Source: Escherichia coli
Lineage (GTDB): Bacteria > Pseudomonadota > Gammaproteobacteria > Enterobacterales > Enterobacteriaceae
Assembly (NCBI RefSeq): GCF_003334815.1
Contig: NZ_QOWO01000011.1
Length of the DNA: 64,000 nt
Reading direction: 5' to 3' (one strand)
Notes under the pieces: generated by a model
Seen by the model: the letters and a program-made list of their open reading frames with translations, nothing else
The model's database searches: none
What the model was told of the DNA's origin: nothing
Shown: piece by piece, positions 2 through 545 of the stretch
Position numbering within the stretch: position 1 is the stretch's first letter
Layout: each line of letters begins with the position of its first letter
Translations under genes and position numbers: made by a program

Positions 2-118
2 ATTCTGGTTTATACCGTCAATAAACCCCAGCGCGCAGCAGAGTTGCTGCGCTGGGGTGTGGATTGCATCTGTACCGATGCGATTGACGTGATTGGTCCG
101 AACTTTACGGCCCAATAG
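2..118 (+). CDS. ugpQ: 3' end of glycerophosphodiester phosphodiesterase (partial; start is upstream of the window)
   Basis: Open frame from the window edge to TAG at 116-118, peptide ...[38 protein letters not shown]; identity from remembered synteny next to yhhA/ggt. Confidence 0.55.
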
Positions 119-545
119 TTTTCAACGGAATGTCAGGCTGCGGCGTGCTGGGCTGATTCAGCATGTCGCCGTTTCTCCTCTCCGGCAGCATATGCTGCTG
201 ATTCAACGAACTATCCGGATTACGGTTGCTGTTTAACATCCCGCCGTTGGTGTTGGGCAGCATTTGCTGCCGGGCGGGATTTCGCTCCCCCGGCTGTGAC
301 TGCAACACCCGCTGAGAATTATTGTTTATCTGGTTTTCTAAATGCTGCTGTTGCAACTGAGTTTGCGTTTTCAGTTGCTGATTCAGCATCCCTTTTTGCT
401 GGATTTGCTGAGTCTGCATCTGGGTTTGCATCCGCTGCTGGCTGGGTATCTGATACCCCGGCTGGTTAGGGTTGTTCAGAGTATTAATGGGCTGTGCAAA
501 GCCGACAAACGGCAGGAGTGCCGTAAGAATCAGAAGTCGTTTCAT
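105..545 (-). CDS. yhhA: Secreted Gln/Asn-rich low-complexity protein of unknown function
   Basis: 146-aa ORF; N-terminal signal peptide [19 protein letters not shown]; strong SD (AGGAGGA) just upstream of the ATG at 543-545; body dominated by Q/N/M-rich repeats; position beside ggt. Confidence 0.8.

Follow-up and report, generated by a model that had tools for sequence, protein, structure and literature searches.

Why does Escherichia coli export a small protein so conspicuously rich in glutamine and asparagine, and does that composition mark a prion-like assembly or cover something more specific? The question is raised by yhhA, at positions 105..545 on the minus strand of a 64,000-nucleotide stretch of E. 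coli DNA (assembly GCF_003334815.1, contig NZ_QOWO01000011.1; the whole stretch is hereafter called the window). This uncharacterised 'y-gene' of the best-studied bacterium encodes a product abundant enough to appear in envelope proteomes. We propose that YhhA is a periplasmic, largely disordered stress-phase protein which acts through sequence-specific binding motifs. To this statement, taken whole, we give a probability of roughly 0.45; its identity, export and regulation layers are held much more firmly. The gene, its DUF2756 family and its status as a protein of unknown function are already on record, and no new kind of system is described here. Our additions are the module structure, the selection pattern, the taxonomic range, a set of short distant relatives, and candidates for the promoter and terminator. 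The odd composition covers strongly constrained sequence, and the core, the duplicated-motif tail and the promoter element are handles by which a role might be found.

Identity, export and expression of YhhA

The open reading frame at 105..545 (146 codons, with its stop at 105-107) is yhhA of E. coli K-12, a member of DUF2756. Its translation is exactly the 146-residue protein that the first-pass annotation of this stretch had named YhhA, and RefSeq places yhhA, 'DUF2756 family protein', at identical coordinates. Window bases 1-700 are 100% identical to K-12 MG1655 and to other strains, and of 5426 complete E. coli genomes all but one (5425) have a yhhA match. Against Pfam PF10956 (DUF2756) the protein aligns over all of model positions 1-105 of 105 with E = 1.1e-60, and it scores 265 bits, against a cutoff of 136, on the NCBIfam equivalog model NF007675 (positions 1-145 of 145). 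The same Pfam scan returned no other family above noise, the curlin repeat included; the DUF2756 profile produced only chance-level matches (E >= 0.4) against all PDB sequences, and Rfam had no match in window 1-3000. The gene name given at first pass was thus correct, as was the statement that no function had been established: none was found in the literature searched, and searches under b3448 and P0ADX7 yielded unrelated papers only. A PHROG scan linked two distant homologues with Rz-like spanins (best E = 4e-4), which we take to be compositional or coiled-coil-like noise. The mechanical list of open reading frames also holds Leu-rich, Ala-rich frames antisense to yhhA, at 342-575 and 296-469 on the plus strand. 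These were rejected as genes, as they mirror the CAG-rich glutamine codons of yhhA, CAG being read as CTG on the other strand.

Features typical of Sec export and signal peptidase I processing are plain at the N-terminus, where residues 1-17 (495..545, minus strand) have the n-, h- and c-region layout of a signal peptide: MKR, then 14 uncharged residues, with G-F-A/Q-P around the predicted cut at A17/Q18. A rule-based residue check covered 79 homologues from other species: Ala occupies position -1 in all 79, position -3 is small (A/G/V/C/S/T) in 79 of 79, and positions +1 and +2 are invariably Gln-Pro. There is no lipobox Cys, and because no mature chain among the homologues contains Cys, YhhA is not a lipoprotein. 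The signal peptide claimed at first pass is therefore of the classical cleavable type and conserved in every homologue, with cleavage after A17 and periplasmic residence predicted from these features; the new N-terminal Gln18 could cyclise to pyroglutamate. A strong Shine-Dalgarno sequence, AGAGGAGGA (552..560, minus strand), can be read 6 nt upstream of the ATG, and the purine-rich block at this site is kept in 12 genera.

Expression appears tied to the stationary phase and to stress. Some 30 nt before the start codon, GTAAACTTA (window 581..573) shows no variation in 12 genera although its flanks vary, and its conservation points to a candidate -10 element of the yhhA promoter, TAAACTTAA (572..580, minus strand). 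This element resembles TATACTTAA, which we take to be the extended -10 form favoured by sigma-S. A scan for consensus sigma-70 promoters found nothing in window 1-900. In published work, a peak from selection of sigma-S holoenzyme targets (SELEX, systematic evolution of ligands by exponential enrichment) falls inside the spacer between yhhA and the neighbouring ggt gene (PMC5493296). The gene is included in an RpoS regulon list and is induced after a cold downshift; its level climbs alongside that of rpoS as cells enter stationary phase, increases are also reported with a LolCDE inhibitor (5.6-9.9-fold) and after an acid shift, and a meta-analysis reports induction across several stresses, oxidative stress included. 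These data and the conserved element agree with sigma-S control of yhhA, of which TAAACTTAA is probably the promoter element.

A further doubt carried over from the first pass was whether a stable protein is made at all, and here mass spectrometry is informative, having detected YhhA in both E. coli and Salmonella. YhhA is named in the figure legend describing a 60 C heat extract of stationary-phase Shiga toxin-producing E. coli, in which the abundant proteins listed are mostly periplasmic or outer-membrane. It is 1.7-3.1-fold up in extended-spectrum beta-lactamase E. coli exposed to beta-lactam below the minimum inhibitory concentration after beta-lactamase knockout, and in Salmonella it is 8.8-fold down inside lettuce, along with Spy, PsiF and YahO.

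Modules, selective constraint and taxonomic range

The mature chain (residues 18-146, 129 residues) contains 29 Q (22.5%), 18 N (14.0%), 14 P (10.9%) and 7 M (5.4%), has two His, and lacks Cys, Trp and Phe. Its grand average of hydropathy (GRAVY) is -1.40, its pI 10.4 and its FoldIndex -0.22; charged residues make up 12%, and Pro rises to 16% in the tail. Relative to the window's other long open reading frames, residues 19-146 are strongly enriched in Q (P = 9e-12) and N (P = 4e-6) and also in P (P = 2e-3), while the excess of M is not significant alone (P = 0.056). The description of YhhA as 'almost purely' Gln, Asn and Met was thus right about its Q/N richness and overstated otherwise, because Q, N and M together account for only 42% of the chain, in which Met is not significantly enriched and Pro reaches 11%. 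Hydrophilins are characterised by Gly above 6% and a mean hydrophilicity above 1; the GRAVY of YhhA fits the latter, and Gly stands at 5.4% in the E. coli protein and at a family mean of 7.2%.

Beneath this composition lie three modules. The mature N-terminal Pro/Asn segment (residues 18-34; 444..494, minus strand), delimited by alignments, carries highly conserved NNPN and PGY motifs and is modelled by AlphaFold2 as non-regular, with a predicted local distance difference test score (pLDDT) of ~55-72. The Gln-rich core that follows (residues 35-84, ending QRVLQSQ; 294..443, minus strand), delimited by the structure prediction, by substitution rates and by distant relatives, is 50% Q+N and free of Pro. 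With a 40-sequence alignment, AlphaFold2 predicts a single long helix over residues 34-83 (pLDDT 89-92 over 41-70), and pLDDT falls below 50 for everything beyond residue 85, that is, predicted disorder.

The disordered tail is a tandem duplication of QQxMLPxxxNGxMLN, as self-alignment shows. Unit 1 (residues 92-114; 204..272, minus strand) retains the conserved motifs Q-x-L-P-N-x-x-G-G-M-L, and unit 2 (residues 115-138; 132..203, minus strand; pLDDT < 50) the islands Q-x-H-M-L-x-x-x-x-N-G-x-M-L. In E. albertii unit 1 is missing through deletion of residues 93-116. The ML dipeptide occurs five times in the protein (residues 53, 95, 103, 119 and 128), where about one occurrence is expected (P = 4e-5, composition-preserving shuffles), and the tail motifs at 95, 103, 112, 119 and 128, counting an SL at 112-113 that is ML or LL in several homologues, follow one another at 7-9 residues. 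'Near-periodic', the term used at first pass, is therefore fair, while the literal MLxxxxN spelling attached to it is not strict. Tandem Repeats Finder detected no DNA tandem repeat in window 1-700, and the DNA of yhhA holds short dispersed direct repeats only, so the protein periodicity does not derive from a recent DNA repeat array. The chain closes with IPLKTIGP (residues 139-146; 108..131, minus strand), whose last codons overlap ugpQ on the opposite strand; [IV]PLKT[IL]GP occurs in 33 of 80 sequences (the 79 homologues and the window protein) and is common to many, not all, genera, with IPLKTVTP, LPVKTNLP and IPLKTMSP as variants and no such end in shorter forms. In C41(DE3), a strain used for membrane-protein expression, a yhhA C290T change (Pro to Leu) has been reported, which its authors considered unimportant. 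It falls in codon 97 (window 255-257), at the Pro conserved in the first QQMLP motif.

When E. coli is compared with 60 other species, dN/dS is ~0.06 in residues 19-34, ~0.08 in the Gln-rich core and ~0.27 in the tail; synonymous sites are at or near saturation. M43 is invariant, and M53, M103, M119 and M128 are invariant or nearly so within Enterobacteriaceae. The low-complexity look is misleading, because conservation runs position by position.

DUF2756 is a small family, seen only in Enterobacteriaceae and close relatives, with a convergent ugpQ beside the gene in almost every case. Scanning a single genome per GTDB species with a sequence pattern recovered 157 relatives, the best 80 of which all belong to Enterobacteriaceae genera save one record labelled Chryseobacterium. 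Across 1.84 billion representative proteins, an exhaustive search with a profile returned 80 clusters only, 13 of them below 1e-30. The exceptional record (L040, 'Chryseobacterium sp. 18061') has an enterobacterial ggt-yhhA-ugpQ locus with a Ggt 90% identical to that of E. coli, and is probably mislabelled or contaminated. The distant homologues, of 87-117 residues, retain nothing beyond the signal peptide, an NPSQQRMQxQM start, the Gln-rich core and a QRVLxSQPG end, and lack the ML tail. One further observation concerns an 87-residue homologue, P0176, encoded at 5001-5264 of locus L084, a metagenome contig, in phage-like surroundings: a protease-capsid fusion/portal block lies on one side, the large terminase gene on the other, and small opposite-strand genes around it; it looks like a prophage cargo gene.

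In the reading we favour, YhhA would be exported by Sec and cut by signal peptidase I at A17/Q18 to leave a basic, very hydrophilic periplasmic protein of ~14.7 kDa. It would be made mainly when RpoS is active (in stationary phase, acid, cold or envelope damage), probably from the conserved TAAACTTAA element. The Pro/Asn-rich N-terminus, the 50-residue Gln-rich helix, which may be formed or merely formable, and the disordered Pro/Gly/Asn tail would together make up a multivalent factor that binds or protects some envelope component under stress. Such a protein would be akin to the other small periplasmic proteins induced by stress, and would be neither enzyme nor prion nor injected effector. 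We infer the binding or protective role because the core is conserved residue by residue and because conservation in the tail is concentrated in the repeated G-M-L-N and Q-x-M-L-P motifs; the helix is likewise a prediction.

Several observations weigh against this proposal. No partner, phenotype or activity of YhhA was found in the literature searched, and the RpoS and stress data come from transcriptome or proteome lists, not targeted experiments. A hydrophobic-moment scan revealed no amphipathic stripe at 100 degrees along the predicted helix, the core moment peaking at 70 and 170 degrees rather than at 100-103, and Fourier analysis detected neither helical nor heptad periodicity in conservation (P = 0.37), so that no binding face is obvious. 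When the helix was modelled as a helix-linker-helix with a paired alignment, a crude proxy for self-association, AlphaFold2 returned a pLDDT of ~72 and a predicted template modelling score (pTM) of 0.34, giving self-association no support; with this lower pLDDT, the helix call depends on context. The moment peaks, the absent periodicity and the pTM also rule out a canonical coiled coil or amphipathic helix. Finally, the Gln-rich core (window 294-443) is not of fixed length in E. coli: large in-frame losses within it, or duplications, spanning 10-55 residues, give rise to rare alleles that encode 96-165 residues. The break points fall at short repeated QTQ/QQ stretches, and residues 1-43 and 117-146 are almost unchanged; either core length is tolerated or these alleles are defective. 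The negative results on partner, binding face and phenotype set the overall confidence given above.

Competing explanations and the ggt-yhhA-ugpQ locus

The alternative that survives best is that the Q/N-rich mature chain self-assembles in the periplasm, as cross-beta fibrils, a gel or a condensate, and that this is its function; we consider it unlikely. The first-pass label 'prion-like' holds as far as counting goes, in that residues 21-100 contain 36 Q/N against the at least 30 per 80 residues that Michelitsch and Weissman (2000) are said to have set, and the core reaches 50% Q+N. Other features of the chain argue against the label: the core is predicted to be helical (pLDDT ~90) rather than disordered or beta, its order of residues is conserved, and the same 80 residues contain six Pro and eight charged residues. 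Similarly, the alternation of polar and non-polar residues in RMQTQMQTQ produces a beta-like hydrophobicity peak near 170 degrees, and the tail has a sticker-and-spacer look, with ML stickers set in an N/G/P/S background, whereas the constraint on the core is position-specific, with invariant positions across genera and a dN/dS of ~0.08, and is not compositional, and Pro is plentiful, most of all in the tail. A precedent for condensates in the E. coli envelope is reported for CsgF (PMC10133297). The literature searched held no report of YhhA aggregation, and surveys of prion prediction that cover exported E. coli proteins had nothing on YhhA. The prion reading rests on composition only. A more specific version, in which the Gln-rich core and the ML stickers drive reversible assembly into a gel or cross-beta network in stationary phase, strikes us as quite improbable. 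Were it true, a YhhA network would alter how viscous the periplasm is or shield envelope components, and prion-like or condensate biology would extend to the ATP-free periplasm outside the curli system.

We are more doubtful still that the conserved Met residues serve as a sink for periplasmic oxidants (hypochlorous acid or reactive oxygen species), or bind Cu(I) through a motif such as MxxxM. Induction under oxidative stress and the invariance or near-invariance of M43, M53, M103, M119 and M128 would suit such chemistry, and MQTQM approximates the MxxxM spacing. Set against this, the seven Met in 129 residues are not a significant enrichment, the mature chain offers only two His and no Cys, and five of the seven Met sit in a fixed ML dipeptide, which argues for a recognition motif rather than a Met cluster. 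Metal or redox genes adjoin neither yhhA nor its homologues in the loci examined.

The gene neighbourhood suggests another possibility. On one side of yhhA the window opens with the 3' end of ugpQ (1..118, plus strand), encoding glycerophosphodiester phosphodiesterase, which converges on yhhA and shares 14 nt (105-118) with its coding sequence. On the other, the divergent ggt (665..2407, plus strand), encoding the periplasmic gamma-glutamyltransferase GGT, is separated from yhhA by a common spacer of 119 bp. The E. coli-like ggt-yhhA-ugpQ arrangement recurs in 77 of 80 loci from other species, and ugpQ lies convergently downstream in 79 of the 80 (two matched in part) as well as in most distant relatives. 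YhhA might on this basis be a co-regulated functional partner of GGT, modulating or feeding it: the divergent pair and its spacer of ~120 bp are kept in those 77 loci and also in certain distant relatives, the stretch between the two genes contains the sigma-S SELEX peak, and both products are periplasmic. We regard such a partnership as highly improbable. Homologues without ggt nearby (L004, L072, L082 and L087) lead us to reject adjacency as proof of functional coupling; ugpQ, not ggt, is the neighbour most consistently kept in the distant relatives examined; and two unrelated genes split ggt from the DUF2756 gene in L089 and L090. Gene order inside one bacterial family is weak evidence in any case, and the substrates of GGT are free gamma-glutamyl compounds; it is not known to act on Gln side chains within peptides. 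As a separate observation, the pair inserted in L089/L090 (2680-3750) encodes a type III effector and chaperone (AvrPphF-ORF-2 family and a CesT-like chaperone). The ggt leader itself contains a GGGG-loop-CCCC hairpin (window 634-644, plus strand), 21 nt upstream of the ggt start codon, whose stem is retained in most of 12 genera and whose loop varies.

Least credible of all is that YhhA is a type III secretion effector 'validated' in enteropathogenic E. coli, as stated, together with a description of clustered S/TQ and QS/T dipeptides, in a preprint (bioRxiv 10.1101/364117): the source reference behind that statement could not be traced, the dipeptide clusters follow trivially from 22% Gln, an effector of this type should lack a Sec signal whereas YhhA has a conserved one of the cleavable kind, and laboratory K-12 strains carry yhhA with 100% identity, as all but one of 5426 E. 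coli genomes have the gene and so do many, mostly environmental, genera whatever their virulence equipment.

The ugpQ side of the locus bears on how yhhA transcription ends. Within the coding region of ugpQ (19..58, minus strand), a GC-rich hairpin at 58..25 followed by UUUAUU at 24..19 forms a candidate intrinsic terminator for yhhA. RNA folding of window 110..1 gives -41.2 kcal/mol (z = -4.97), a value equalled by none of 200 shuffles; three terminator-like matches in window 1-900 are within shuffle expectation. If this candidate operates, yhhA RNA would run antisense to ugpQ over ~100 nt at its 3' end, in keeping with a 2025 paper that counts yhhA-ugpQ as one of the overlapping-transcription ('excludon') pairs (PMC12288877).

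Comparison with known systems

The closest comparison is with DUF2756 itself (PF10956 / NF007675), of which E. coli YhhA is the reference member; the window protein is that same protein and differs in nothing, and the homologues share its placement beside ugpQ and ggt. Against the Q/N-rich prion domains, eukaryotic (Sup35, Ure2, Rnq1) or bacterial (such as that of Clostridium botulinum Rho), YhhA is alike in its high Q/N content, low complexity and few aromatics, and has no Cys. It is unlike them in being exported, in its predicted helical core, in its position-specific conservation, and in its relative abundance of Pro and charge. The secreted Q/N-rich functional amyloid of E. coli, curli CsgA/CsgB, comes nearer in setting, as these proteins too are Sec-exported, Gln/Asn-rich and built on imperfect internal repeats. 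YhhA nevertheless has no curlin match, its repeat is QQxMLPxxxNGxMLN and lies in a Pro-rich part of the chain, and no csg-type accessory gene is found near yhhA in the window or in the 80 species loci.

The better parallel, in keeping with the stress-phase reading that we prefer, is with the small stress-induced proteins of the E. coli periplasm, for example Asr, an acid-shock protein that is basic and disordered, and the helical group of Spy, CpxP and ZraP. There is no sequence relationship to any of these, the composition of YhhA differs (Gln/Asn rather than Lys/His/Ala or Glu/Arg), and the likeness to the Spy/CpxP/ZraP group is one of form. What they have in common with YhhA is small size, a signal peptide, induction under acid, stationary-phase or envelope stress and a disordered or simple helical chain, and it is with Spy, ZraP, PsiF and YahO that YhhA is co-listed in proteomes.

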